From positions 4,590 to 68,589 of the forward strand of contig JBFXGO010000004.1 of the NCBI GenBank assembly GCA_050239825.1: 64,000 nt of DNA, given 5' to 3'. The position numbers and the translations under genes were made by a program. Within the stretch, counting starts at the first letter, position 1. Every line of letters begins with the position of its first letter. The notes under the pieces are model-generated. The model ran no database searches. It was given only the letters and a program-made list of their open reading frames with translations, and was not told the DNA's origin. Positions 4,147 to 45,910 of this stretch are shown here, piece after piece. This stretch comes from a bacterium. Lineage in GTDB: Bacteria > Hydrothermota > 32-111.

Positions 4147-5707
4147 TCAGAACCCCCATCTTTGTCTTTACTTCAGATTTTGCCTCAGCTCTGTTGAATG
4201 AATCAATACCCCTCATGTCGAAGAGCATTCCGTAGGAAAAGGTTCCCCTGTCCGGATTTGCCCACCCCTGACAATCTTCCTTATCGGTCCTGTATATATC
4301 ATCTCCGGCAAAATCAATCAAAACCCCAGCGCCGTTTGCATTGCCCGCACCCTGAGAGAGCCAATTGCTGTAATAGAGGTCATCACCCGAATAATCTGAG
4401 AGCATGCCGAATGAGAAATCATGTCCGCATCCCTGTGATACACCCCATGAATGGTAGAGGTCTCTGCCTTCCCTGTCGAAGAGAAGACCCACTGTAAAGT
4501 GCGTTCCGGCTCCCTGCGAATACCTTCTGCTCCTGTAAATGTCATTGCCGCGCGTGTCGTAAAGTATTCCAAGTCCATGCCAGTACGACGAACCCTGCAC
4601 AAAATATTCTCCGGAGTAGATATCATCACCGCAGTCGTCAACTATCATTCCAACTCCGCCGGATGCAATGTCCCTCACTCCATAGCCGAAGCCCTGCGAA
4701 AGATGACTGTGGTACCCCTCTTCTCTATGGTCATTCATGCCGAGAACTGAAAGATATGAATCATTTCCTTTGATGTCATAAATTATACCCGCTCCTTTTG
4801 TGAAGCCAAAGCCCTGCGATAATCCATTTGAAATGTACTCGTCATTACCTCCCCTGTCAAGAACAAATCCCAATCCATTGAAACCGGCCCCGATTGAGCA
4901 GTAAGATGAAGAGTATCTGTCATTGCCATCCCTGTCATCTATAAACCCTGCTCCATTTATTCCGCACCCGATGTCATATCCCTTTCCCTGATACTCGTCA
5001 TTGCCGGACAGATCGACAATCCCTGACAATCCGCCGTTTCCGCCTGCAAGAGAGTGCTCTTCAAAAGCCATGTAAACATCATCGCCCCCCAAATCAATTA
5101 TCAGTTTATTTCCTTTGTACAGATGATATGTATCGGCATCTGACGACCCGATTATGATATCAAAATAATCTTTGTATTCATCTTTAAGTTTCATGCAAAG
5201 AGATAATATGGAGGAATCATCAAGAGATATTATATAATCAATTGCTTCAAGCATCGAATAGAAGAGTTTTTCTTCGGCGCTCTCTCTTGACGCGGCGTTT
5301 AGAAAGAATCTAACCTGAGAATAGTAGGCGGAATCCGAAATCAAAGTATCCGAGAGGAAATTCATGCTGTTAAATGCTTCTTTTGTCTTTAAAAAGCTGA
5401 AATCAGGTTTTGAAATCTTCTTCTTTGAAGTTTCTCTCTTATCTGCATACTTATAGAATCTGCCGGAATGCAATTCTCTTATTTTTGATAACAAAATTTC
5501 GGTTTCAAATTCCGACTTCTCCGGATTCGCCAACAGAAAACTGCAAAGAGCCATAGAGTATGCATCCTGTTCAAAACTTCTCATATCCACCCCAATGTCA
5601 TTTGTTTTCAGACACATGTACGAAAATCCCTCTATCAATGCTTTTTCATTGGCATAAGAGAAGAGAAATGCCAGAAACAGAAAGATAAAACTAATTTTCC
5701 TCATCAA
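4133..5707 (-). CDS. Secreted beta-solenoid-like repeat protein (about 10 degenerate 23-24-aa GNDxY...SQGxG repeats)
   Basis: 524 aa with a signal peptide. The C-terminal 300 aa is built from tandem units such as DLSGNDEYQGKGYDIGCGINGAGFIDDRDGNDRYSSSYCSIGAGFNGLGFVLDRGGNDEY. Confidence 0.55.
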   Translation of the reverse strand: MMRKISFIFLFLAFLFSYANEKALIEGFSYMCLKTNDIGVDMRSFEQDAYSMALCSFLLANPEKSEFETEILLSKIRELHSGRFYKYADKRETSKKKISKPDFSFLKTKEAFNSMNFLSDTLISDSAYYSQVRFFLNAASRESAEEKLFYSMLEAIDYIISLDDSSILSLCMKLKDEYKDYFDIIIGSSDADTYHLYKGNKLIIDLGGDDVYMAFEEHSLAGGNGGLSGIVDLSGNDEYQGKGYDIGCGINGAGFIDDRDGNDRYSSSYCSIGAGFNGLGFVLDRGGNDEYISNGLSQGFGFTKGAGIIYDIKGNDSYLSVLGMNDHREEGYHSHLSQGFGYGVRDIASGGVGMIVDDCGDDIYSGEYFVQGSSYWHGLGILYDTRGNDIYRSRRYSQGAGTHFTVGLLFDREGRDLYHSWGVSQGCGHDFSFGMLSDYSGDDLYYSNWLSQGAGNANGAGVLIDFAGDDIYRTDKEDCQGWANPDRGTFSYGMLFDMRGIDSFNRAEAKSEVKTKMGVLIDKD

Positions 5708-6962: not shown

Positions 6963-8994
6963 TGTTTCTCCTTGTTAAATTGATTTTAACACATCTGTTA
7001 TCCTCTTTCAACAGGTTTTTATCTGAGGACATCAAAGAAGACGCGTCTGAAAATGCAACTTTCATAAGCTGGAAATCATCAAACCAATCTGCATACTTGA
7101 ATCTGGGTATTCCGCTCTGCATGCTCCCCCATGCCTCTCCCATGCCCCTCATCCTCAAATCCATCTCAGCAATTTCAAATCCGTCATTTGTTTTGGCTAT
7201 TGTTTTAAGTCTCACTATTCCGTCTTCGCTCACCTTGTCGCCTGATACAAGGAAACAATATGATTGCTTCTCTCCTCTGCCCACTCTTCCCCGTAGCTGA
7301 TGAAGCTGTGAGAGTCCAAACCTTTCCGCAGACAAAATAACCATAACAGTCGCGTTTGTGACATCTATGCCGACTTCAATGACGGTTGTTCCTACAAGCA
7401 CATCAATTTCACCCCTGTTTAGCATCTCCATAACATCAGTCTTCTCTTCCTGAGAGAGTCGCGAGTGTATTTTTCCGACTCTTGCCCTTAAAAGGTATTT
7501 CTTCTTGACCTCTTCATACACTCTCTCTACGGATTTCATATCAGCCTCTCCGCCGATGTCAATAGCCGGACAAACAATGAAACAGCTCTCTTTGGCGTCA
7601 ATTCTCTTTTCTATAAACTGGTACATCTTCATCTGGGCTTTATTGGAGACCCATTTTGTCTTAATGGTTTTTTGCTGTTTCGGTTTCTCTTTTATCTCCG
7701 TAATATCCATCTCTCCGTAAACTGCAAGAGAGAGTGAGCGTGGAATCGGCGTGGCTGTCATCACAAGATAGTCCGCAACAATGCCCTTGTTTCTCAGTTT
7801 CGACCTGTGAACCACTCCGAATCTGTGCTGTTCGTCTATTATTACCAGTTTTAAATCTTTGAAGCGCACTTCATCCTCTATCAGAGCATGAGTTCCAATA
7901 ACTACATCGACATCCCCTCTCTCGATATCCAAGAGCCCTCTGTCTCTCTCTTTAACGGATGATGTGACAAGTCTGATTCTGACTTTCAATTGTGAAAAAA
8001 GTTTTGAAAGAACTGAAAAATGCTGCTGCGCAAGTATCTCGGTCGGAGCCATGAGGACAGACTGATATCCGCTCTCAACTGCAGTCAGCATAGCCATTGC
8101 CGCAATAAGAGTCTTTCCTGATCCCACATCTCCCATTAAAAGCCTATTCATAGGCACTCTGCTTTGCATGTCTCTCTTAATCATTTGAAATGCGTTCTTC
8201 TGGTCATCGGTCAATGTAAAACTCAAGCCCTCAAGAAGTTTTTTCACAAGGAGAGATTCGGCGACATAGTTGAAATCTCCGATGATATTGTTTTTTTCCT
8301 TCCTTACTGCCACCTTCATTCCTGCGTAGAAGAGCTCCGAGTACTTCATTCTTTCAAGAGCTTTCTCCACTTCTTCGCTCTTAGAAGGATAGTGCATTGC
8401 TCTGACTGCATCAGAAATTTTCATCAATCCTCTTTTTAAAATAAGTTCGGAAGGAATATCCTCTTCTATATTTGCGGAATATGAATCAACAGACCACTTG
8501 ATAACTTTCCTCAGCCATCTCTGCGACATATCTTTTGTCAAATGGTAAACAGGCACAATTCTGCCTGTATGAATGAGTTCAACATCCTCTTCGGGAAATT
8601 TCTCATACTCAGGATGCAGCATCTCCATCAGCGCCCGTCTGATGGAGACCTTTCCGCTGAGAACGATAATATCTCCCTGCTTTATTGCTCCGTTGAGATA
8701 CGGATTGTTGAACCACTTTGCAGTCACATATCCGCTCTCAGTCTTGATTACGGCAGTAAAGAGCGTTTTTCTGCTTCTAAGAAAAGTCATGCCTGATTGC
8801 AGAACCTCTCCCACCAATGTCAGGTATTCCCCGTCTCTGACCTCCCTCTTTTTAGTCAGTTCTCTGTTAACATACTTGAACGGGGGATAGGTCATAAGGT
8901 CATATATCGTGCTTATGCCAATCTTTGAAAGCAGTTCTGCCATTTTTGGACCTACGCCTTTGGCAAACTGCACTGAATCAAACATTGATGTCAT
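6946..8994 (-). CDS. recG: ATP-dependent DNA helicase RecG
   Basis: 682 aa with Walker A LMGDVGSGKT and DEQH box IIDEQHRFGV, plus the wedge-domain N-terminus typical of RecG. Confidence 0.9.
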   Translation of the reverse strand: MTSMFDSVQFAKGVGPKMAELLSKIGISTIYDLMTYPPFKYVNRELTKKREVRDGEYLTLVGEVLQSGMTFLRSRKTLFTAVIKTESGYVTAKWFNNPYLNGAIKQGDIIVLSGKVSIRRALMEMLHPEYEKFPEEDVELIHTGRIVPVYHLTKDMSQRWLRKVIKWSVDSYSANIEEDIPSELILKRGLMKISDAVRAMHYPSKSEEVEKALERMKYSELFYAGMKVAVRKEKNNIIGDFNYVAESLLVKKLLEGLSFTLTDDQKNAFQMIKRDMQSRVPMNRLLMGDVGSGKTLIAAMAMLTAVESGYQSVLMAPTEILAQQHFSVLSKLFSQLKVRIRLVTSSVKERDRGLLDIERGDVDVVIGTHALIEDEVRFKDLKLVIIDEQHRFGVVHRSKLRNKGIVADYLVMTATPIPRSLSLAVYGEMDITEIKEKPKQQKTIKTKWVSNKAQMKMYQFIEKRIDAKESCFIVCPAIDIGGEADMKSVERVYEEVKKKYLLRARVGKIHSRLSQEEKTDVMEMLNRGEIDVLVGTTVIEVGIDVTNATVMVILSAERFGLSQLHQLRGRVGRGEKQSYCFLVSGDKVSEDGIVRLKTIAKTNDGFEIAEMDLRMRGMGEAWGSMQSGIPRFKYADWFDDFQLMKVAFSDASSLMSSDKNLLKEDNRCVKINLTRRNSEEID

Positions 8995-9554
8995 TTTGTC
9001 TCTCTCATGAGAAGAATGTTCTGTGACTTGAAGCCGAGAATCCTGTAAATCCCAAATATGTCGGGAATCTGAATTGTTATCTTATAAAGATTGTAATCTT
9101 TGTCAAATGCCACCATTGATGTATCCTCTCTTCCATCCCTGATGCTCACATTATAAATGAAGATTGTCTCCTCAACCATATTCATATAACCCTTTGATTC
9201 TATTCTTCTTTTGTACCCTAGTCCCGTCTCAGTTCCGCTGTAAAACCAGGAGGTCTTCTCTGCAAAGGGAAGAACCATCCTTATTCTGCGCGGTGAGTAT
9301 GTCAGGTTGGCGCTTATGAGTCCGATTTTAATGAACCGCTTTCTAAGATAGAATGTGTCATTTATGATGGTGAAATCCTCAGAGTATGTGAGATTCTTAT
9401 CCTGCGCCTTTATTGAAAACTCAGATGGTCTGCTCAGCACAACAATATCAAACACCTTTCCGCTTTCCGCCTCTTTCATTTTGAAACTATCAATCCCCAT
9501 GGGAAGACTTCCGATATTCGTGAGATAAAATGAAAGAATTAATAGTTGCAACAT
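8991..9554 (-). CDS. Hypothetical protein (possible LolA-like/lipoprotein)
   Basis: 187 aa, N-terminal hydrophobic segment. Stop/start overlap with recG. Confidence 0.4.
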   Translation of the reverse strand: MLQLLILSFYLTNIGSLPMGIDSFKMKEAESGKVFDIVVLSRPSEFSIKAQDKNLTYSEDFTIINDTFYLRKRFIKIGLISANLTYSPRRIRMVLPFAEKTSWFYSGTETGLGYKRRIESKGYMNMVEETIFIYNVSIRDGREDTSMVAFDKDYNLYKITIQIPDIFGIYRILGFKSQNILLMRETK

Positions 9555-9717: not shown

Positions 9718-10401
9718 GTGAAAAGGTTTCTATTAACATTGACTGTCTTTTTGGTCATATTCTCATTCGGATGCTCCAAGAAAGCCGCATCCATTGACGG
9801 AGATTATACTTACAAGGCAGATTTTTCAACAAAGAGGATGTTCAAGGATGTTCTCAATGTTAACGACGGAGACACAACATTTGTTTCAGGAAATGTAAAT
9901 CTCGTTTGGAAGACAAAGGACGAGGTCAAAGGCAACATGATTACAATTGAAAGCTCATTTGGCGATGACACTACATGGTCGGATGCAAAGGGACTTGAGG
10001 TTCAGACCTCAGGCAGTTATTCAGAGGAGCTTAAAGAGGCAGGAGTATATTCATACAAACTCTCTCTTGACAACACTTTGATGCACACATACAAAATAAG
10101 TGTTCCTGCAATAACAATACTCTCTCCAGTTCCTTCGGATACTACTCTTAATGGAAAAGAGACAAACATTGAGTTTAACAGAGTTGACAAGGCAGAGAAG
10201 TATCTTGTATTTGTAAGAGGTTACAAGGGAGATTCCATCTGGGCAGTTGAGACATCCGATTCACAGATAAAATATGCAGGCGCGCCTCTTGAATACGGAA
10301 TGGTCTATTCGGTGACAGTATCAACCACCATTCTCTGTGATTCATTGAACAGCGTCGGCGTTTCATCCACAAATCAGTTTGTTATAAAGAAAGCTGAATA
10401 A
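9718..10401 (+). CDS. Lipoprotein, hypothetical (GTG start)
   Basis: 227 aa. The signal peptide has lipobox FSFGC. AGGAGG lies 7 nt upstream of the GTG. Confidence 0.55.
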   Translation: MKRFLLTLTVFLVIFSFGCSKKAASIDGDYTYKADFSTKRMFKDVLNVNDGDTTFVSGNVNLVWKTKDEVKGNMITIESSFGDDTTWSDAKGLEVQTSGSYSEELKEAGVYSYKLSLDNTLMHTYKISVPAITILSPVPSDTTLNGKETNIEFNRVDKAEKYLVFVRGYKGDSIWAVETSDSQIKYAGAPLEYGMVYSVTVSTTILCDSLNSVGVSSTNQFVIKKAE

Positions 10402-11470: not shown

Positions 11471-11499
11471 TTGACATCTATCCATTATGATATTAAAAT
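11471..11499 (+). promoter_or_regulatory. Sigma-70-like promoter (TTGACA-17-TAAAAT) upstream of htrA
   Basis: TTGACA at 11471-11476, a 17-nt spacer, then TAAAAT. It lies about 30 nt upstream of GGAGG plus the GTG start at 11530. Confidence 0.35.
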
Positions 11500-11529: not shown

Positions 11530-12987
11530 GTGAAGCGTCTGTTGACTATAACTGTAATTGTCGCACTTTTATTTGCGTGCGGCATAATTTCTGCAACTCT
11601 TGTGCAGAAAGCCAACTGCCAGACAGAGACAGTTAAAATCAATGGCACTAATGGTGCGGCTCTGACCCTCCCTTCATTCAGGGAACTGGCAAAGAATGTG
11701 ACGCCCGCAGTGGTTCACATCACAGCCGAGAGCAGCGTGAAAGTGTCGCCGTTTTTCCCTTTTGATGACCCTTTCTTCCGCGACTTTTTCAAAGATATGC
11801 CTGAGTATGAGAATAAGAATACTTCAATGGGCACAGGATTCATCTTTGATAAAAACGGAAGCATAGTTACAAACTACCATGTCATAAAGAATGCCAAGAA
11901 AATAACCATAAGACTACTTGACGAGCGCGAATTCTCAGAAGATGAGATTGAGATAGTCGGAACTGACGAGAGAACCGACATTGCAGTCATAAAAATAAAA
12001 AAGGTATCGGATATGCCTTATCTGGAATTTGGAGATTCCGATGAGATGGAGGTGGGAGACTGGGTTATGGCTGTGGGCAATCCGTTCGGATTTGACGGCA
12101 CAGTCACAGTAGGAGTCATATCAGCTAAGAACCGCTCCAACATTGCGCTTTCAGGCGGACCAATGTATCAGGATTTTATACAGACAGATGCATCGATAAA
12201 TCCTGGCAACAGCGGCGGGCCTCTGGTTGATTTGAACGGCCATGTTATAGCTGTAAATTCCGCCATTGCATCACCCTCAGGCGGAAATGTGGGGATAGGA
12301 TTCGGTATTCCCTCCAACATGGTTGTCATGGTTATAAATCAGTTGAAAGAGAACGGAGTGGTATCGAGAGGATACCTTGGGATAGTTCCTCAGGAGCTGA
12401 CTAAAGATCTAAAAACAAAATTCGGCATGGACGCCAAAGAGACCGGGGTTCTTGTTGCGCAGGTGGAAGCAGAGACTCCTGCATCCAAAGCAGGATTAAA
12501 GGAGGGCGACATAATACTCCAGTTCAACGGAAAGAAGATTGAGAGTGTAAACAAATTCAGAATAGCCGTAGCCGAAACCCCGGCAGGAAAGAGGGTGGAG
12601 ATTCTCATTTTAAGAGACAAAGAAAAGAAGACTCTCACTGCAGAGATAGGGAAGCTTGAAGAGGAAACAGTTGCAAACAATGATGAAAAGAATGCGAAGC
12701 CGGGAGAATGGCTCGGAATGACAGTCGAGTCTTTAACGGATGAAAACATCTCAAAATATTCGGTTGCCGTAAAAGATGGAGTAGTCATTACCGCAATAGC
12801 CAAAGATTCTCCTCTTATTGACGCAGGCGTTAGAGTGGGAGATGTCATAACAAAGATTGAATCCTTTAAAATAAAAAATATGTCTGATTTTAGTAGCGCG
12901 AAGAAAAAATATGAAAAGAATAATGATGTACTTCTGACTGTCAAGAGAGGCAACACTTCAATCTGGGTGGTTGTAAAGGCAAAATAA
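11530..12987 (+). CDS. htrA: Periplasmic serine endoprotease DegP/HtrA family (protease + 2 PDZ)
   Basis: 485 aa. Catalytic triad context TNYHV...D...GNSGGPLVDLNGHVIAVNSAI, followed by two PDZ-like segments. Signal peptide present; GTG start. Confidence 0.9.
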   Translation: MKRLLTITVIVALLFACGIISATLVQKANCQTETVKINGTNGAALTLPSFRELAKNVTPAVVHITAESSVKVSPFFPFDDPFFRDFFKDMPEYENKNTSMGTGFIFDKNGSIVTNYHVIKNAKKITIRLLDEREFSEDEIEIVGTDERTDIAVIKIKKVSDMPYLEFGDSDEMEVGDWVMAVGNPFGFDGTVTVGVISAKNRSNIALSGGPMYQDFIQTDASINPGNSGGPLVDLNGHVIAVNSAIASPSGGNVGIGFGIPSNMVVMVINQLKENGVVSRGYLGIVPQELTKDLKTKFGMDAKETGVLVAQVEAETPASKAGLKEGDIILQFNGKKIESVNKFRIAVAETPAGKRVEILILRDKEKKTLTAEIGKLEEETVANNDEKNAKPGEWLGMTVESLTDENISKYSVAVKDGVVITAIAKDSPLIDAGVRVGDVITKIESFKIKNMSDFSSAKKKYEKNNDVLLTVKRGNTSIWVVVKAK

Positions 12988-12997
12988 GGAGAAAACA

Positions 12998-13837
12998 ATA
13001 AATTTCAGGGATTCAAGCGACAAATCGCTTCAAATTTATTTAAAAGAGATCAGGCGATTCCCTCTCCTCACACCGCAGGAGGAGAGGGAGTATGCCGTAA
13101 AAATACAAAAAGGTGACAGAAAAGCCCTTGAGAAACTTGTTCAGGGAAATCTGAGATTTGTGGTAAATGTCGCGAAGGAATATCAGGGAAAGGGCCTCTC
13201 CCTTTCAGAACTGATAAATGAGGGCAACTACGGGCTTATGAAGGCGGCGCAAAAATTTGAAGTCTCGAAAAATGTCAAGTTTATATCCTATGCAGTGTGG
13301 TGGATAAGACAATCCATTATGAAGGCCGTGCTTGAAAACAACAGCAATATAAGAGTCCCTCTCTCTCAGAGAGGCAAGATGAACCTTGTGGGACGCACGC
13401 GTCATGAGATGCTGAATACAAACGGCGAAATGCCCACATTCAAGGAAGTAGCAGACAGAATTGGATTATCCGAAAACGAGGTTCAGCAGATAGTAAACCT
13501 CACAAAGACAGAGGTCTCTCTAAATGAACCAATCTCGTCAGATGAAAGTCTCTACCTTTCCGATACTATATCTCAGAATTCGGAAGAGTCGCCGGAAGAG
13601 ACTCTCTTCAGAAAAAGATATAAGGAGACTCTCAAAGCACAGCTTGACAAGCTGTCAGAGCGTGAATCATTCATACTTAAAAAATACTTCGGACTTGATG
13701 ATTTCAGGCCGCACACGCTTGAAGAGCTCGGAGATGAGCTTCAAATATCAAGGGAGAGGGTTAGACAGATAAAAGACCGCGCTGTAAACAAATTGAAGGA
13801 CCTGACAAAAAATATACTGGAGCCGTACAATGAATAG
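12998..13837 (+). CDS. Short sigma-70 family factor (Bacteroidetes/FCB sigma-A type); start codon uncertain
   Basis: Regions 2-4 are clear: NLRFVVNVAKEYQGKGLSLSELINEGNYGLMKAAQKFE, YAVWWIRQSI, and a C-terminal HTH LEELGDELQISRERVRQI. The conserved region 1.2 (YLKEIRRFPLLTPQEEREYAVKIQKGD) is encoded in-frame upstream of the ORF-track start at 13160. The only in-frame start candidate is ATA at 12998, six nt after AAGGAG. Confidence 0.7.
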   Translation: MNFRDSSDKSLQIYLKEIRRFPLLTPQEEREYAVKIQKGDRKALEKLVQGNLRFVVNVAKEYQGKGLSLSELINEGNYGLMKAAQKFEVSKNVKFISYAVWWIRQSIMKAVLENNSNIRVPLSQRGKMNLVGRTRHEMLNTNGEMPTFKEVADRIGLSENEVQQIVNLTKTEVSLNEPISSDESLYLSDTISQNSEESPEETLFRKRYKETLKAQLDKLSERESFILKKYFGLDDFRPHTLEELGDELQISRERVRQIKDRAVNKLKDLTKNILEPYNE

Positions 13838-14714
13838 ATTCTTTTCAAGAAGGAAAGTAAGAGTATCTGTAATTCCACACTCATCAGAAGATACAAAAAA
13901 CTCTAAATTTTTCTTTGTTTTGATTCCCATACTCTTTCTGCTTCTCTTTTCTCTGGTGGTATACCTACTCTTGATGTCAGCTTTGAATTTTAAAAATATC
14001 AGCAAATATGCGGCTGTGAAAAAAACCAATGAAGAGGTCAAGCTGCTCTCTATAAAAGATGACGAACTCAAAGAGAAGATGGGTGAGATTGATTATGGCG
14101 TCAAGAACCTCAAATCGCGGATGACTGAAATAATACCAGTTTACAAATATCTATCCGGGATAGTCAAGACAGACAACGAAGATTTGAGATTGACATCGAA
14201 TCTTGATTCCCTTTTGATTATGACAGAGTACCTTAGCTCTGTGATGGACACTTCAGTTAAAAGACTGTCGGAAAACAAAAAATTTTCCACAGTTCCCTCC
14301 CTTGTGCCTGTCAATGGCTGGGTTCTTAGAGGATATGGCAGGGTCAGCGACCCTTACACTCAAACAATAAAAATGTCAACCGGAATTCTTTTCGTATCGG
14401 AGACTGAGGAGAAGGTCTTTGCTACTGCTGATGGAGAAGTTTCATTTGTTGGACAAAAAGATAAATTAGGAAGCACAATTTTCATAAATCATGCAGGGTA
14501 CCAGACTCAATACTCTCATCTTTCAAACATAATTGTTTCAATCGGATCAAAAGTCAAGAAGGGTCAGCATATAGGATTTGCGGGAAAGACTGGAAAGACT
14601 CTATCTTCATCGCTGTTTTATAAAATTATGAGAGATGATTCAGTGATAGACCCTGCATCATCATTTCAGATACCTGTTTATAACCTTTACGACACTTTGA
14701 TGATAAACTTATAG
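13830..14714 (+). CDS. Degenerate LytM/M23 domain protein (EnvC/NlpD-like, catalytic His residues missing)
   Basis: 294 aa with one TM segment and a coiled-coil region. The C-terminal M23 fold (GxxxFINHAGYQTQYSHLS...GFAGKTG) lacks the HxxxD and HxH zinc ligands. Confidence 0.65.
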   Translation: MNRFFSRRKVRVSVIPHSSEDTKNSKFFFVLIPILFLLLFSLVVYLLLMSALNFKNISKYAAVKKTNEEVKLLSIKDDELKEKMGEIDYGVKNLKSRMTEIIPVYKYLSGIVKTDNEDLRLTSNLDSLLIMTEYLSSVMDTSVKRLSENKKFSTVPSLVPVNGWVLRGYGRVSDPYTQTIKMSTGILFVSETEEKVFATADGEVSFVGQKDKLGSTIFINHAGYQTQYSHLSNIIVSIGSKVKKGQHIGFAGKTGKTLSSSLFYKIMRDDSVIDPASSFQIPVYNLYDTLMINL

Positions 14715-39375: not shown

Positions 39376-40799
39376 TCCTTTGTGAAGACTTTTTTTCCTC
39401 TTTTGAATGTCATGACTATCCGGGGATTCTTAGCTGGAATTTTTTCAATCGGAGAGTCAAAGACTGTCATATCCGCAAAGTATCCTTTTTCAAGCTTTCC
39501 AAAATTTTTCCCTTCATTCATTATTTCTGCGCTTCCCTCAGTATAGCACTTAAGAGATATGGAAGGTTTCATTCTCTGATTTTCAAATTGAGCCTTTGCG
39601 AGAGATTCAATGCCGTATACAGGCGAAGGGGGCATGCAATCGGAGCCGAATCCGAGAGGAATTGATTTTTCATATATTTCAGAGACGACATTGTTGAATT
39701 CATAATATTTCTTATCCAGCCTCTCTTCATACATCTGTCCCTTCATAGCCCAGTTGCCTATAAAATTGGGTTGCATAGAGAGCATCAGGGATTGTTTTCT
39801 GACTCTGTCAATCTGTTCTCGCGCCGCAAGTTCAAAATGCTCTATCCTGTCATTCTTTCTACCTACAAGATTTTTCAAAGAATACTCTATCGCCTCATCC
39901 CCTATCGCGTGAACTGCAAGCTGGTAGCTGTTCTTTTCCGCAGTTGCAAAAGCTTTTCTGAAATCTGTTCTTTTGAGAACGATCTCTCCCTTCTCTTTTG
40001 TATTTTTGTAAGGAATAGTCAAGGCGGCCGTGCGTCCGCCGATTGACCCGTCAGTGAAAAGTTTGAGCCCTTTCAGTTTGACATTTTTTCTATCTTTCCA
40101 CCCCTGAAGATTCTCCGCCAACATTGCGGGATAGTAGAAGAAAACATCAAGCTTTAGGTTTCGGGAATCGTAAATATCAAAAGAATCATATGTCGCCATA
40201 TCTCCTATTGAAGTTATGCCGAGAGAGAAAAACATGTTCTGAGCTTCCGACAGAGCTCTTTGCATATCCGCCTTTGCCGGTTTGAGCACAGTGTTCAGAG
40301 AGAGAACAATCCCCTCCCGAGCTATTCCGCTCCTATTGTCAAAATTGCCATTAAGCTGATTTTTAAGGAGTCTGACTGCCTCTTCATTGAGCACCGCAAT
40401 ATGACCACAGACTCTTCTTACAATTACCGGTTTTTTCAAATTCATTGCATCAAGCATCGCCTTTGAAGGAAATTTGTTTTTTTTGAATTTTGTTTCGTCA
40501 AACCCCTCTGCAATAATATACTCTGAGTTTAAATTTTCACGCGCATACTTCTCAATTCGCAGATATATTTCCTCTTCGGATTTCACTCCTGAGAGATTGC
40601 ACCGTATAAGATTCAGTCCGTACCAGAGAAGATGAGTATGCGCATCAATAAACCCGGGGTAAATATATTTGTCTGAAAGGTCTATTGTCTCGATATTCTT
40701 TTCCGAAGAATCTTTGATAAAAGCGATTCTCTCCCTCTCTATTCCTATGAAGCGGAAAAATCTGCCGCCTGAGAGAACATTTGCTTTTATCTGATACAT
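39372..40799 (-). CDS. Amidohydrolase family (YtcJ-like metal-dependent hydrolase)
   Basis: 475 aa. YPGFIDAHTHL metal-binding motif at the N-terminus, and HAIGD and GSDCMP motifs C-terminally. Confidence 0.75.
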   Translation of the reverse strand: MYQIKANVLSGGRFFRFIGIERERIAFIKDSSEKNIETIDLSDKYIYPGFIDAHTHLLWYGLNLIRCNLSGVKSEEEIYLRIEKYARENLNSEYIIAEGFDETKFKKNKFPSKAMLDAMNLKKPVIVRRVCGHIAVLNEEAVRLLKNQLNGNFDNRSGIAREGIVLSLNTVLKPAKADMQRALSEAQNMFFSLGITSIGDMATYDSFDIYDSRNLKLDVFFYYPAMLAENLQGWKDRKNVKLKGLKLFTDGSIGGRTAALTIPYKNTKEKGEIVLKRTDFRKAFATAEKNSYQLAVHAIGDEAIEYSLKNLVGRKNDRIEHFELAAREQIDRVRKQSLMLSMQPNFIGNWAMKGQMYEERLDKKYYEFNNVVSEIYEKSIPLGFGSDCMPPSPVYGIESLAKAQFENQRMKPSISLKCYTEGSAEIMNEGKNFGKLEKGYFADMTVFDSPIEKIPAKNPRIVMTFKRGKKVFTKE

Positions 40800-42538
40800 C
40801 AGCTTCCAATATCCAAGAACGGCTTCAGAATCTCCGCCCTGTTCTTGTGACCCAGTTTTTCAAGAGCCTTTGCCTCTATCTGCCTGACTCTTTCTCTTGT
40901 GACATCCAGTATTTCGCCCACCTCTTCAAGGGTGCGCGGATAGCCGTCCTGCAGGCCGAACCTGAGCTTTAGAACAGTCTGCTGTCTCGGAGTCAGATCG
41001 GACAGAACCATATCAAGCCTCTCCCTGAGCATGGAAAGCATCGCATGGTACTGCGGAGATTTTTGATCCACATCTTCTATGAAGTCGCAGAATATTGATT
41101 CATCGCTGTCACCTATGGGTTTGTCGAGTGATATGGTTTCCTGAGCAATTTTGTAAACGCTCTTTATTTTATCAAGTGGTATATTGAGCCTCTCTGCGAC
41201 ATCCTCTTCTGTCGGTTCTCTTCCAAATTCCTGCATGAGAGCCCTGGTGGCTTTAACCACCTTATGCATCACCTCTATCATGTGGACAGGCACTCTTATT
41301 GTGCGCGCCTGGTCGGCTATTGCTCTTGTTATTGACTGTCTTATCCACCATGTCGCGTAAGTTGAAAATTTGTAGCCCTTCTGATAATCGAATTTTTCCA
41401 CTGCCTTCATCAGACCGGCATTTCCCTCCTGTATAAGGTCCATGAATTCAAGGCCCCTGTTTGTATATCTCTTCGCTATTGAAATCACAAGCCTCACATT
41501 TGCGCGAATCATCTTTTGTTTTGCGTCATTTAAAGTGACCTCGAATTTTGTGAGGTTCTTTATTATTTCATCGAATTTCTCATTGTCACAACCTATCTCA
41601 GATTCCATCTTTTTTATGCATGATTGAATGTACTCTATCTCTCTTTTTACATTTATGAAATCCTCTCTCTTGATGTTTCTCTTCTTGTATTTGATAGGCA
41701 CATTTCCCTTTGCATCGCAAATACGCATTATATCATTTATAGATGTGTCGAATCTTTTTTCTATGAGTTTGAATTTTTGGTTTTGCATGCACAGATCTTT
41801 GTGCAGAATTTTGTAGGATTTTATCATGTCATTGAGCTGCACCGAATTCACCTGCATCTCTTGAACCTTATCAATAAGATTGGAGTAGATTTTTTCCATC
41901 TTTTTGTCGCGTTTTTCTCTTTCGGATTTCTTCAGTCGTGAGTAGCCCACCTTTTCTTCCTTTATTTTCTGAATGTCTTTCTTAATGTCGTCAAAGAGTT
42001 TTTTTAGCTTCTGATATTTTTTCTTCTGCGAAAGTTCGTTTGATATATTCGGATCCTCTATGTGAAAGTACTGGTCAATCGACTCCTCTTCATCTATGAC
42101 TTTGTCGTAGAATTCCTGCACTCTGTCAAATGTCTTGTCAATCATGAACAGATTTGAGATTATGCCTCTTCGTCCCTCTTCCATAACTCTCGATATAGTC
42201 ACTTCCATATCCTTTGAGAGCAGTTCAATGGATTTCATCTCTTGCAGATACATTCTGACGGGGTCATCATACTTTATCCTTTCATAGAGGTCGGATTTCT
42301 TTTCCGCCTCTATTCTGTGAGTGGGCTCAGGCATCTGCTTCTCATTGTCATCTTCTATCAGCGCTATGCCCATCGTCTGCAGACGCGTTATGAGGCTGTC
42401 AATTTCATCAACCTCAAAATCTTCTGGCAGGAGGCTGTTGAGCTTGTGATACGGCAATTCTCCATTCACCACAGCTTTTTTAATGATAGTGTTGATTATA
42501 TTTTCAATATCGCCTGTCTTCTTGGCATCAAGAGCCAT
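40799..42538 (-). CDS. rpoD: RNA polymerase primary sigma factor RpoD (full length, with region 1.1 and a non-conserved acidic insert)
   Basis: 579 aa with [52 protein letters not shown] and a C-terminal 4.2 HTH. Confidence 0.9.
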
Positions 42539-42539
42539 T

Positions 42540-44246
42540 TTACCTCCCTCCTTTTATTTTCTTGACCATCAGAACTCTCATGTGCATCAGTCTGTCCTTT
42601 TCCTCTTCATCAGAGGCATTCTTTATTTTTATGTCAATCTCTTCAATGCGCTTCAAAATTCTTTTCTCTTTTACTATTCCGAGAATCTCGTTTATTTTCT
42701 TCTCATCCGGTTTATGCTCAAGATAATAGGTCATCCTTTTGATTATATAATCTTTCAAATATTTTATTTTATCATTTTTAATGAATAAGTCAATATTCTC
42801 ATCCCTTGTGTCCAAGGAATTGCAGATAGAGATGAATGTTCCTTTCAGTGGCAAATCCAAAAAATCAGTCTCCTCAACTTCAAAACAGAGCTTTTTACAA
42901 AGCCCCCTATCAGAGAGCATTATTGCTATGATTTCATGATATATATTTGGTTTTTCCGCATCTTTTTCCTCTTTGACTGACTGCTCGGATTTCACTCCGG
43001 GTTTCAGAAATTTTTCTGAAATCCTGAGTCGCTCCACGACTCCCTTTGTATAGAGATTCCTTGTAACATCATCTTCAATATTTTTAACCGCATCAATTAC
43101 AAAATTTACAAAGTGCTTCTTTGAGAGCATCTCATCCTCTTCCTTCTCCTTAAAATACTCCTCTGCGAACCAAATAAAATCTTTTCTTCCACTCTCAATA
43201 TGCGCGAAATCGATTTTATCGCCCAGCTTTTTTACAAGCTCATCCGGGTCCTTCACGGTTTTGTCCGAGAAGACGCTCACAATCAGACCCTCCTTAAGCA
43301 GTATTGGAATAGACCTCATTGTTGCATTCCTTCCGGCTTCGTCCGTGTCATACATTAAAATGACCTTTTCGCACGCTTTTTTGATGATCTTTGCCTGTTC
43401 AGCAGTGCAAGCAGTTCCAAGCTGAGCCGCCGCATTCCTCACTCCTGCTCTGAAGAGAGAGATAAAATCCATGTATCCTTCAACAAGAATCATTGAATTT
43501 TTCTGCGATACCGCCTGTCTGCTCAGATGGAGCCCATACAAAAAATTACCTTTTTTAAAGACCGGAGTCTCCTGAGTATTGAGATATTTCGGATTATCAT
43601 CTTTGAGAACCCTGCCGCCGAATCCTATGACATTTCCGGAGTTTGAGAAAATTGGAAACATGATTCTGTTGAAGAAGACATCCCTCATGTTTCCATACTG
43701 GTCTTTGTGGATGAGGCCGGCTTTGACAAAATCATCGTACTTAAATCTTTTTTCTTTAAGGTGGTTTATAAGAGAATTTGAACTGTCGGAGAAGCCAAGC
43801 TTGAATGTTTCTATTTCCGGAAGGTCAAGCATCCTCTGCTTCAGGTAATCTCTTGCCTGTGAATTATCCATGAGTGATTTTTTATAATGATTCATCGCTA
43901 TCTCATTCGCCTCATATATTGTGCTTGTCACACCCCTCTCGCCCGACCTTTTATACTGGGAAAGGTCTATGCCTGATTTTTTTGCCAATATCTCGATTGC
44001 GTCATTGAAATCTACATGTTCAATCTCCATGATGAATGAGATTACATCTCCGCTCTTCGAACAGCCGAAGCAGTGATAGAAACCCTTTGTTGAGTTGACT
44101 ATGAAAGAGGGCGTCTTCTCCGAATGGAATGGACATAACCCTTTGAGCGAACTTCCCGACCTCTTAAGAGAAACATATTCAGATACAATGTTCTCTATCG
44201 GATTGGATTCTTTTATTTTGAATACGAGGTCTTCAAGATTGAACAT
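42540..44246 (-). CDS. dnaG: DNA primase
   Basis: 568 aa. Zinc ribbon [11 protein letters not shown]...CFGC, then the TOPRIM core (EGYMD, D..D). Directly upstream of rpoD as in the classical rpsU-dnaG-rpoD arrangement. Confidence 0.9.
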
Positions 44247-44294: not shown

Positions 44295-45830
44295 TCAGTA
44301 TTTGAAAGAGGAATTTCCTATAAATTCCCTCAACACCGAGGTGGGTGGAATGAACTCCATGGATATCGGCTTGAAGAACGAAAGTATGAATTGAAGCCTC
44401 TTTGCATCAAGGTAATGCGGCTTCTCCTCGGTAATCCCGCCAAGCAGGGGTTCGGCAAAGTTTTTTAGCACGGAGAGCTCGTACAACAGAGATGAATTGA
44501 ACATGAAATCGGCAGTCTCCTGAAATGGGAATATATTCTTCTCTTCTCCGCGTCTGACCGAACGCCACATTTCAAGGGTCTGGTCAGCAGAATGGTTTCT
44601 GAACAGATAATCCCTCACGAGCCTCCTGATAAGACGGTTGTCGGTAGTTGATATCCTGTGCGTGCTGTCAATGTTTATCTGAGTTAAAGCGGAAACATAT
44701 ATTTTTGCCTTCTTCTCCTTTGGAACAGATTTTGTCAGTTTATCATTCAAGCCGTGGATTCCTTCGATTATCAAAATCGTGTTTTTTTCAAGTTTAGCTC
44801 TCTTTGTCTCCTTTTTTCTCACTCCCAGAGTGAAATCAAATACCGGAAGCTCCACTTCTCTGTTCTCAATGAGTTCAATCAGATTTTTGTTGAAGAGTTC
44901 AAGGTCGATTGCGTCTATCGATTCATAGTCGAATTCATTGTTTTCATCTTTGGGTGTCTTCTCTCTGTTTACGAAGTAATTGTCAAGCGAGATTCCCGAA
45001 ACGGAAATGCCAAGCACGCGAAGTTGAACCGACAATCTTTTCAGAAATGTAGTCTTTCCGGAAGACGAGGGTCCTGCAATTGAAATGAGTCGTAGGCGGT
45101 TTCTCATTGAATCTATCTGATGGGCTATGTCAACTATCCTTTTCTCATGAAGCGCCTCTGACACCTGAATGAGTTCGGCTATCTCCTGCCTTTCAATTGA
45201 ATCCTGCAGATTTTCGACAGACCTCCAGTTTAGGATCTTAGCCCAGTTTTCGGATTCGTTGAATACATTAAAAAGCTTCTTCTGATCGTTTTTTTCAAAT
45301 GCCCTTCCGCTGAAAATTATTATTCCCGGAGGATAATATTTAATATATGCACCTTCAAGAAGAGAGGTCTTCGGCACAACCGGAGTGAAGAAAAAATCTT
45401 TTGTCCAGTTGAACTGTGCGAAGAATGCTCCATTCACGGATGAATTCTCCAATAGATACTTTTTTTTGCTGTCATCTTCAAATAGGGTGATAAGCTCATC
45501 CCTCTTTTTAAACTTCGCTGTAATCATCTCATCGGATTTTATTATCTCCTGAAGCTTCTCATTCATTTCATCTATAGTTTTTTCACTGATGAGCACCGGT
45601 GAGAATATTTCGCAGTAGAGCCCCCCATTGATAGTGTGTTCGACATTAAGTTCACTATCCGGGAACATCGAATTCATTATTGATTTAACAACCAATATCA
45701 GGGAGTTTTGAAGAACAAGCTTGCCGTACATTGAATCGGAATAAACCGAAGACAAATCCGAATAATCACTCTCGCATGAGAGCGGTATTAGTCTGTCGTT
45801 TTTTCTGTAACATACTGTTTTTCCGTTCAT
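44295..45830 (-). CDS. Long-form uridine kinase/phosphoribulokinase-family P-loop kinase with N-terminal TGS-like extension
   Basis: Walker A IAGPSSSGKTT followed by the uridine kinase fold. The ORF-track start at 45896 would translate through the tRNA (the RVGGSNPPTS artefact), so the start is moved to the ATG at 45828-45830 (MNGKTV...). Confidence 0.65.
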   Translation of the reverse strand: MNGKTVCYRKNDRLIPLSCESDYSDLSSVYSDSMYGKLVLQNSLILVVKSIMNSMFPDSELNVEHTINGGLYCEIFSPVLISEKTIDEMNEKLQEIIKSDEMITAKFKKRDELITLFEDDSKKKYLLENSSVNGAFFAQFNWTKDFFFTPVVPKTSLLEGAYIKYYPPGIIIFSGRAFEKNDQKKLFNVFNESENWAKILNWRSVENLQDSIERQEIAELIQVSEALHEKRIVDIAHQIDSMRNRLRLISIAGPSSSGKTTFLKRLSVQLRVLGISVSGISLDNYFVNREKTPKDENNEFDYESIDAIDLELFNKNLIELIENREVELPVFDFTLGVRKKETKRAKLEKNTILIIEGIHGLNDKLTKSVPKEKKAKIYVSALTQINIDSTHRISTTDNRLIRRLVRDYLFRNHSADQTLEMWRSVRRGEEKNIFPFQETADFMFNSSLLYELSVLKNFAEPLLGGITEEKPHYLDAKRLQFILSFFKPISMEFIPPTSVLREFIGNSSFKY

Positions 45831-45838
45831 AAAATTTA

Positions 45839-45910
45839 AGCTGGTGGGCGGATTTGAACCGCCGACCCGCGCTTTACGAAAGCGCTGCTCTACCACTGAG
45901 CCACACCAGC
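45839..45910 (-). tRNA. tRNA-Thr (anticodon CGU)
   Basis: The reverse complement folds as a cloverleaf: acceptor GCTGGTG/CACCAGC, D-arm GGCTCAGTGGTAGAGC, anticodon stem GCGCT/AGCGC with loop TTCGTAA (anticodon CGT), T-arm GGCGG-TTCAAAT-CCGCC. CCA is not encoded. Confidence 0.8.

Follow-up and report, generated by a model that had tools for sequence, protein, structure and literature searches.

A conserved AUA, AUU or AUC codon probably initiates translation of an alternative sigma factor in an uncultured WOR-3/Stahlbacteria-type clade

We analyzed a 64,000-nucleotide (nt) stretch of bacterial DNA (positions 4,590 to 68,589 of contig JBFXGO010000004.1, assembly GCA_050239825.1; Hydrothermota, lineage 32-111), here called the window, and found that a short gene of the sigma-70 family in it very probably begins at an AUA codon. 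Our reading is that the AUA at 12998, supported by a Shine-Dalgarno (SD) sequence, is a genuine initiation codon, that the gene specifies a functional alternative sigma factor of 279 amino acids, and that an AUA, AUU or AUC codon (hereafter AUH) has been kept at this position throughout the clade by selection, with low output. The original prediction, made from the letters of the window, had noted that the gene has no canonical start codon before its conserved N-terminus and had offered three accounts: rare AUA/AUU initiation, loss of the start codon leaving a pseudogene, or a sequencing error at an ATG. The finding of AUH in 13 lineages bears out the first of these; the other two failed, as described below.

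The conserved N-terminus of the short sigma factor is encoded upstream of the first canonical start codon. Read directly, the open frame begins at 12977 and ends with the stop codon at 13835-13837 (Table 1). Counted from the ATA, the protein has Pfam matches, all above gathering scores, to PF00140 (region 1.2, residues 10-41), PF04542 (region 2, 47-111), PF04539 (region 3, 128-201) and PF04545 (region 4, 216-267). A start at the GTG at 13160 would drop all of region 1.2 from the protein, together with 8 residues at the beginning of region 2, in agreement with what had been predicted, and no SD-like core was found before that GTG. The TAA that closes the sigma frame upstream had been thought to sit where an ATG was lost. 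It does close the frame, but it does not replace a start codon: the triplet lies inside the coding sequence of the preceding gene, htrA, and in other orthologues the upstream in-frame stop is found at different positions.

Table 1. Features of the short sigma gene, its neighborhood and the second sigma gene in the window.
Feature	Coordinates	Strand	Description
Short sigma-70 family gene	12998..13837	+	279 amino acids plus stop; regions 1.2, 2, 3 and 4; without region 1.1
ATA, proposed initiation codon of short sigma	12998..13000	+	In frame with the sigma open reading frame
AAGGAG Shine-Dalgarno sequence	12986..12991	+	Overlaps htrA stop; 6-nt spacer AAAACA to ATA
TAA closing the sigma frame upstream	12974..12976	+	Within the coding sequence of htrA but out of its frame, at the conserved ...VVK codons
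htrA stop TAA	12985..12987	+	13 nt (start to start) 5' of ATA
GTG, first in-frame ATG/GTG/TTG of short sigma	13160..13162	+	Codon 55 from ATA; inside region 2.1; start chosen by the mechanical list of open reading frames
Region 1.2 coding segment	13025..13120	+	Residues 10-41; wholly 5' of first canonical start; PF00140, 52 bits
htrA/degP-like periplasmic serine protease gene	11530..12987	+	Trypsin_2 and two PDZ domains; N-terminal signal-like segment; GTG start, AAGGAGG SD
M23 peptidase gene	13830..14714	+	Overlaps sigma stop by 8 nt; third gene of putative operon
Near-consensus sigma-70-type promoter-like site, TTGACA-17-TAAAAT	11471..11499	+	11/12 matches; 31 nt 5' of htrA GTG; consensus match only
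Full-length RpoD gene, housekeeping type	40799..42538	-	579 amino acids; regions 1.1, 1.2, 2, 3 and 4; ATG start, AAGGAGG SD
dnaG	42540..44246	-	RpoD gene directly downstream; classical primase-rpoD arrangement

An AUH codon preceded by an SD is present at the start of the gene in all 13 lineages that we compared. The closest relatives of the short sigma factor in a protein search were 62-90% identical in amino acid sequence and came from metagenome-assembled genomes labelled Candidatus Stahlbacteria, candidate division TA06, WOR-3 or "bacterium". We retrieved the DNA of these relatives and read the sigma frame upstream of each called start. A scan of genome contigs with the single protein was dominated by distant sigma factors of the Fibrobacteres-Chlorobi-Bacteroidetes (FCB) type; L001 was the only close relative, and the other 79 loci were used as an outgroup control. 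A scan of metagenomes with a DNA pattern gave 7 loci, 3 of them in the clade. The 13 lineages are the window, L081, L082/83/84/96, L085, L088/89/97, L086/87, L001/L102, L091, L090, L092, L095, L093 and L094.

The codon at the start site was ATA in seven lineages, ATT in two and ATC in four, and was ATG, GTG or TTG in none. Every lineage has an SD (AAGGAG, AAGGAAGG, GAGG/GAGGGG, GGAG or AAAGG) 5-7 nt upstream of the AUH, in support of the earlier placement of initiation at the ATA that follows AAGGAG. The htrA stop codon is 11-23 nt 5' of the AUH, and the protein counted from the AUH is uniformly 277-280 amino acids long. Conservation of amino acids begins exactly at this codon (I-N-F-[RK]-D..., I-K-E-[IF]-[SN]-D... 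and I-A-x-[NF]-[DE]...). In L082 (TAA GGA GCA AGA ATA), L090 and L088, the open frame extends upstream of the AUH by just 3-5 codons, leaving no room for another start. The first canonical start, by comparison, has no fixed place: it falls between codon -10 (in L094 and L095, where it is a TTG within htrA) and codon +80, indicating that no downstream start is conserved. An alignment of orthologues had been proposed as a check on the original prediction, with a common start at the equivalent of 13160 as the outcome that would count against it. The aligned start position holds ATA, ATT or ATC in all lineages, and no such common start was found.

The codons between the AUH and the first canonical start are, judged by their pattern of substitution, translated and under purifying selection. 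We calculated the ratio of nonsynonymous to synonymous substitution (dN/dS) by the method of Nei and Gojobori for codons 2-54, the segment from the AUH to the first canonical start in the window, in five lineages. The ratio was 0.03-0.11 and synonymous sites were near saturation (proportion of synonymous differences, pS, 0.47-0.85). The AUH was kept in 13 of 13 lineages while adjacent codons diverged at synonymous sites. The gene has the features of a conserved AUH-initiated gene: no canonical start before essential conserved sequence, an AUH at the proper distance from an SD, and retention of that codon across orthologues.

Two other features close to the start were seen in some of the lineages. 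At 13015-13030 on the plus strand, in codons S-D-K-S-L and 17 nt 3' of the ATA, a 6-bp hairpin (AAGCGACAAATCGCTT) precedes a T-rich stretch and was flagged as terminator-like; it is present in L082, L088, L093 and L094 and broken in L081, L085 and L092. L081, the 90%-identical orthologue, has an out-of-frame mini-open reading frame, ATG CGA TAA, between the SD and the ATA (2960-2968). Its ATG comes 1 nt after the SD, and its stop shares bases with the ATA; no such element was seen in the other lineages.

The AUH start is a derived trait specific to the clade, as judged from the outgroup. A canonical start was found 5' of region 1.2 in 79 of 79 outgroup FCB-type sigma loci, with ATG in Bacteroidota and TTG in 35 of the 79, mostly Ignavibacteria ('LKITKQFTNRES'; loci L002-L080, e.g. 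L008, L015 and L034). A sister clade (P0028, 50% identity; L103/L104 498-4427) has the gene order HSP20-htrA-sigma-M23, and its sigma gene starts at a TTG (L104 2501), with the frame opening one codon before. In L062, from a different WOR-3 lineage (44%), the start is ATG and the upstream neighbor is another gene. Given the TTG starts in Ignavibacteria and in the sister clade, weak start codons seem to be recurrent on the short-sigma branch.

Within the window, this start anatomy is rare. We scanned the 118 stop-to-stop open reading frames with 100 codons or more for an ATA, ATT, ATC or CTG that stands behind a strong SD and 5' of the first canonical start. Five matched: three antisense shadows of real genes, one with an ATG at the next codon, and the short sigma gene, which is the only real gene in the 64-kb window with an SD and a non-canonical start candidate before its first canonical start. 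Among 56 long non-overlapping reading frames, the picked starts were ATG (44), GTG (6, including the GTG at 13160 of the short sigma gene) and TTG (6), and 38 of the 56 had an SD core 3-10 nt upstream, indicating that the organism uses SD sequences, as had been stated at the outset. We also considered an altered genetic code in which AUA is read as methionine, and rejected it. ATA codons inside the short sigma gene align with invariant isoleucines (for example, in ELINEGN), indicating that the code is standard.

Public annotations of the gene were truncated or mis-started in every relative that we checked (P0001-P0026). The annotated lengths are erratic: many are 198-245 amino acids and lack region 1.2, several are 267 amino acids from "MYLKEIK", and a few are 274-289 amino acids, which suggests that gene callers miss the start throughout the clade. 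P0001, the 90%-identical orthologue at NCBI, is annotated from an internal ATA (L081 3001) and not from the SD-proximal ATA at L081 2965. Two apparently full-length database proteins, P0008 and P0010, begin at a TTG inside htrA that has no SD (position 1501 in both L094 and L095). Both of their loci have an SD and ATC GCN just after the htrA stop, indicating that these TTG start calls are artefacts, and L092, a close relative of P0008, has an in-frame stop at the position matching the TTG of P0008. Re-annotation from the AUH yields a uniform protein of 277-280 amino acids.

The short sigma factor is, by sequence comparison, a second, alternative sigma factor that resembles FCB sigma-A and group-2 sigma factors, and is distinct from the housekeeping RpoD. 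When all open reading frames of the window were searched locally with the short sigma factor, a full-length RpoD was found; its scores were 366 bits on TIGR02393 (RpoD_Cterm, for which the cutoff is 354) and 527 bits on NF004208, the RpoD equivalog. Its presence in the same window makes the short sigma factor the second one and argues against a primary role for it. The short sigma factor scored 221.5 bits on TIGR02393, short of the cutoff for an RpoD/SigA equivalog. It is not the sole group-1-type sigma factor of its genome, and it lies outside the dnaG-rpoD context; neither is as expected of a primary sigma factor. Its best NCBIfam match was rpoS_proteo (TIGR02394), at 244.7 bits against a cutoff of 378.7, too low for assignment to RpoS.

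The short sigma factor has regions 1.2, 2, 3 and 4 in order, as do the four-region sigma-70 proteins of groups 1 and 2. Its length of 279 amino acids, the 9 residues before region 1.2, the lack of region 1.1, and its nearest relatives outside the clade, in Bacteroidota and Ignavibacteria, are those of the short FCB-type sigma-A. It is 38% identical to the RpoD of its own genome (regions 2-4) and 41-47% identical to the primary sigma factors of Bacteroidota and Ignavibacteria. Among solved structures it matched generic SigA and RpoS, the RpoS structures at ~165 bits. The earlier description of an FCB-type short sigma factor holds for length, layout and relatives, but not for the identification of the protein as the sigma-A of the cell, given the full-length RpoD encoded beside dnaG. 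A genome with both a classical RpoD and a short sigma factor like FCB sigma-A is relevant to the origin of the short primary sigma factor of Bacteroidota and Ignavibacteria.

The genes around the short sigma gene appear to form an operon, htrA-sigma-M23, that is a conserved cluster. In every clade locus whose sequence reaches upstream of the sigma gene, the gene directly before it is htrA (L089 begins at the sigma gene), and in all clade loci the M23 peptidase gene directly follows. The near-consensus promoter-like site upstream of htrA is a candidate promoter for the operon, and we found no other such site on the plus strand before 13802, consistent with co-transcription. The HSP20 gene in the cluster of the sister clade supports a stress-operon context, and a gene for a second cell-wall hydrolase (SLT) is nearby on the other strand.

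In the mechanism that we favor, the strong SD (AAGGAG with a 6-nt spacer) would place the 30S subunit at the AUA, and initiator tRNA would read AUA, or another AUH in the relatives, with a mismatch at the third position, giving a formyl-methionine N-terminus. The strong SD would compensate for the weak codon. The AUH is most probably maintained by selection to keep synthesis of the sigma factor at a small fraction of the level from AUG, and by analogy with known cases the predicted output is from a few percent to ~10% of that of an AUG start. Synthesis would be sensitive to initiation factor 3 (IF3) and to growth state, by analogy with infC, Staphylococcus aureus ccpN and Streptomyces sigR. 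Re-initiation at the AUA by ribosomes that have just finished htrA may also contribute.

It is quite possible, although we would not call it probable, that the AUH abutting the htrA stop is a device of translational control used across the lineage. Output of the sigma factor would then be set mainly at the initiation codon, through IF3 or the status of the ribosomes and/or through reinitiation, and not by an anti-sigma factor or an RNA switch. If this is true, then it would point, along with the TTG starts seen in the sister clade and in Ignavibacteria sigma-A, to long-standing selection for weak initiation across the short-sigma branch.

Several points weigh against this interpretation or narrow it. 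The site of initiation and the first residue of the protein are predicted from sequence, and we infer the IF3 dependence, the low efficiency and the coupling to htrA by analogy. Neither infC nor an initiator tRNA gene was found in the window, the query for IF3 being an Escherichia coli sequence. The restriction of the third position to A, T or C, never G, reflects few independent substitutions, and taken alone is weak statistical support for selection against AUG. Folding revealed neither a conserved RNA structure around the SD and start codon that would point to a thermometer or other elaborate switch (z = +0.59 for the fold in the window relative to shuffled sequences) nor an SD-sequestering helix common to the folds of the individual lineages. 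A role in envelope or heat stress is suggested by the gene neighborhood only (htrA, M23 and SLT, and HSP20 in the sister clade). Lastly, the long RpoD is documented for the genome of the window, so that its occurrence across the clade is extrapolated from one genome.

We considered whether termination and reinitiation could be the main mechanism, and regard this as possible but unlikely. Ribosomes finishing htrA would restart at the AUA and the sigma factor would be slaved to htrA; a weak codon would be tolerated, as no de novo recruitment of 30S subunits would be needed. This is a variant compatible with AUA initiation as we propose it. The constant proximity of the htrA stop to the AUH, with the SD overlapping or just following that stop, is in its favor, as are the lack of any promoter-like site on the plus strand after the candidate promoter of htrA and before the sigma gene, and the adjacency of htrA and sigma even in the 50%-identity sister clade. 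However, a conserved strong SD at optimal spacing favors SD-directed placement of the ribosome over a passive restart, and the sister clade has a TTG in an equal arrangement.

A start at an internal codon of region 1.2, the ATT at 13034 in 'QIYLKEI', is very unlikely. Initiation there would give a protein of 267 amino acids. The corresponding codon is ATG in the TA06-type lineages (L001 and L086), where gene callers start, and the NCBI protein P0001 begins at the ATA in that position. There is no SD before the codon at 13034, however, and in every lineage a strong SD and AUH are found 10-12 codons further upstream. In addition, the Pfam match to region 1.2 begins at residue 10, before this codon, and the 11 codons that an internal start would leave untranslated (codons 2-12) are under purifying selection (proportion of nonsynonymous differences, pN, 0.04-0.15 versus pS of 0.49-0.97).

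It is highly improbable that the gene produces a truncated sigma factor from the GTG at 13160, or that it is a pseudogene decaying after loss of its start codon. That GTG is the first canonical start, and many database entries for relatives are similarly shortened. But it lacks an SD, its equivalent is not conserved, and the loss of regions 1.2 and 2.1 would deprive the protein of conserved portions of its fold. The dN/dS of the upstream 54 codons, with synonymous sites saturated, refutes the pseudogene proposed in the original prediction, as does an open reading frame of 277-280 codons that is intact in 13 lineages.

An error of sequencing or assembly that hides a true ATG at or near the start has nothing in its favor beyond the general expectation that single-base errors occur, and we consider it vanishingly improbable. 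The AUH was found in 13 lineages from many independent assemblies (NCBI, ENA, JGI and Logan), and several lineages had identical start regions in 2-4 independent samples or pipelines; an ATG at 12974-76 would also alter the VVK codons of htrA, which are largely conserved in the clade. We give essentially no credence to recoding, in which frameshifting or stop-codon readthrough would make an HtrA-sigma fusion: the htrA stop is in the sigma frame in L082, L086 and L001, where readthrough would fuse the two, but the relation between the frames is 0, 1 or 2 depending on lineage, which leaves no single conserved event, in-frame stops of the sigma frame are at variable positions, and the signal-like N-terminus of HtrA is incompatible with a cytoplasmic sigma factor.

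A few other features of the window were noted in passing. Three promoter-like sites as good as the one upstream of htrA are present near it on the minus strand and face a divergent cation-efflux gene. Two open reading frames beside the operon, 9718-10401 (plus strand, 227 amino acids) and 8991-9554 (minus strand, 187 amino acids), had no Pfam match at E <= 1e-4. Elsewhere, a tRNA-Thr (CGU) gene at 45839-45910 on the minus strand overlaps the listed GTG start (45896) of the reading frame 44295..45896, which has a PRK/uridine kinase domain, indicating that the true start of that frame is further downstream.

Initiation at AUH with a strong SD is already known, as is a sigma factor with a non-canonical start. 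In E. coli, AUA, AUC and AUU give 1-2% of the AUG level, and the confirmed non-canonical starts are limited to those of infC and pcnB (10.1101/063800). In vitro, mRNAs starting with AUA or AUU are sensitive to IF3, nutrient state and ppGpp (PMC5499595). In S. aureus, infC, cvfC1 and ccpN have conserved AUA or AUU starts after extended SDs, with output ~10% of that from AUG, and ccpN responds to the medium (PMC13009471). In Streptomyces, IF3 represses the conserved GTC start of sigR, and the regulon is de-regulated when that codon is made canonical (Feeney et al. 2017, PMC5472188).

What is new here is the kind of protein, an alternative sigma factor with four regions and the character of FCB sigma-A; the WOR-3/Stahlbacteria-type lineage; the alternation of three isoleucine codons at the start; and the wrong annotations in the relatives that were checked. 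We found no report of an AUH-initiated sigma factor in the literature searched. The short sigma gene would be an addition, from a deep uncultured lineage, to the very short list of bacterial regulators with a kept non-canonical start (infC, pcnB, ccpN and sigR). As another sigma factor besides that of Streptomyces, it suggests that control of sigma supply at the start codon is more widespread than thought.

Of the known systems, Streptomyces sigR is similar in several respects. It also specifies an alternative sigma factor, one associated with stress as the short sigma factor may be, has a non-canonical start conserved in its lineage, and lies in a small operon with partners that are translationally linked, as they may be here; its weak start limits synthesis of the sigma factor, as we propose by analogy for the short sigma gene. 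The differences are that the codon here is AUH and not GUC, and that the protein is a four-region sigma factor like those of group 2 and FCB sigma-A and not one of the extracytoplasmic function type. There is also no adjacent anti-sigma gene here, the neighbors being htrA and the M23 peptidase gene, and the clade is an uncultured one of the WOR-3/Stahlbacteria type.

The genes infC (AUU, AUA or AUC) and E. coli pcnB (AUU) share with the short sigma gene an AUH start found across species, and their expression is set by the discrimination exerted by IF3. Unlike infC, which is autoregulatory and whose product is the discriminator itself, the short sigma gene specifies a transcription factor, so that any effect of IF3 would be a one-way input. 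The ccpN (AUA) and cvfC1 (AUU) genes of S. aureus and Bacillus subtilis are also regulators with a conserved AUA or AUU after a strong or extended SD, and were also mis-annotated by gene callers. They belong to other protein families and phyla, whereas here three isoleucine codons alternate and the start abuts the stop of the upstream cistron.

As a protein, the short sigma factor is like the short primary sigma factors of the FCB group (sigma-A of Bacteroidota and Ignavibacteria, ~285 amino acids), which are its best matches outside the clade, have regions 1.2-4, and have about 9 residues before region 1.2. It differs from them in coexisting with a full-length RpoD that has region 1.1, and the outgroup genes start with ATG, TTG or GTG. 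It is also like the sigma factors of group 2 and the RpoS type, which are about 280-330 amino acids long, have regions 1.2-4 and coexist with RpoD. Expression of E. coli rpoS is controlled largely at translation. The short sigma factor scores below the cutoff of the RpoS family, and the control device that we propose for it is the start codon, in contrast to a leader hairpin opened by a small RNA.

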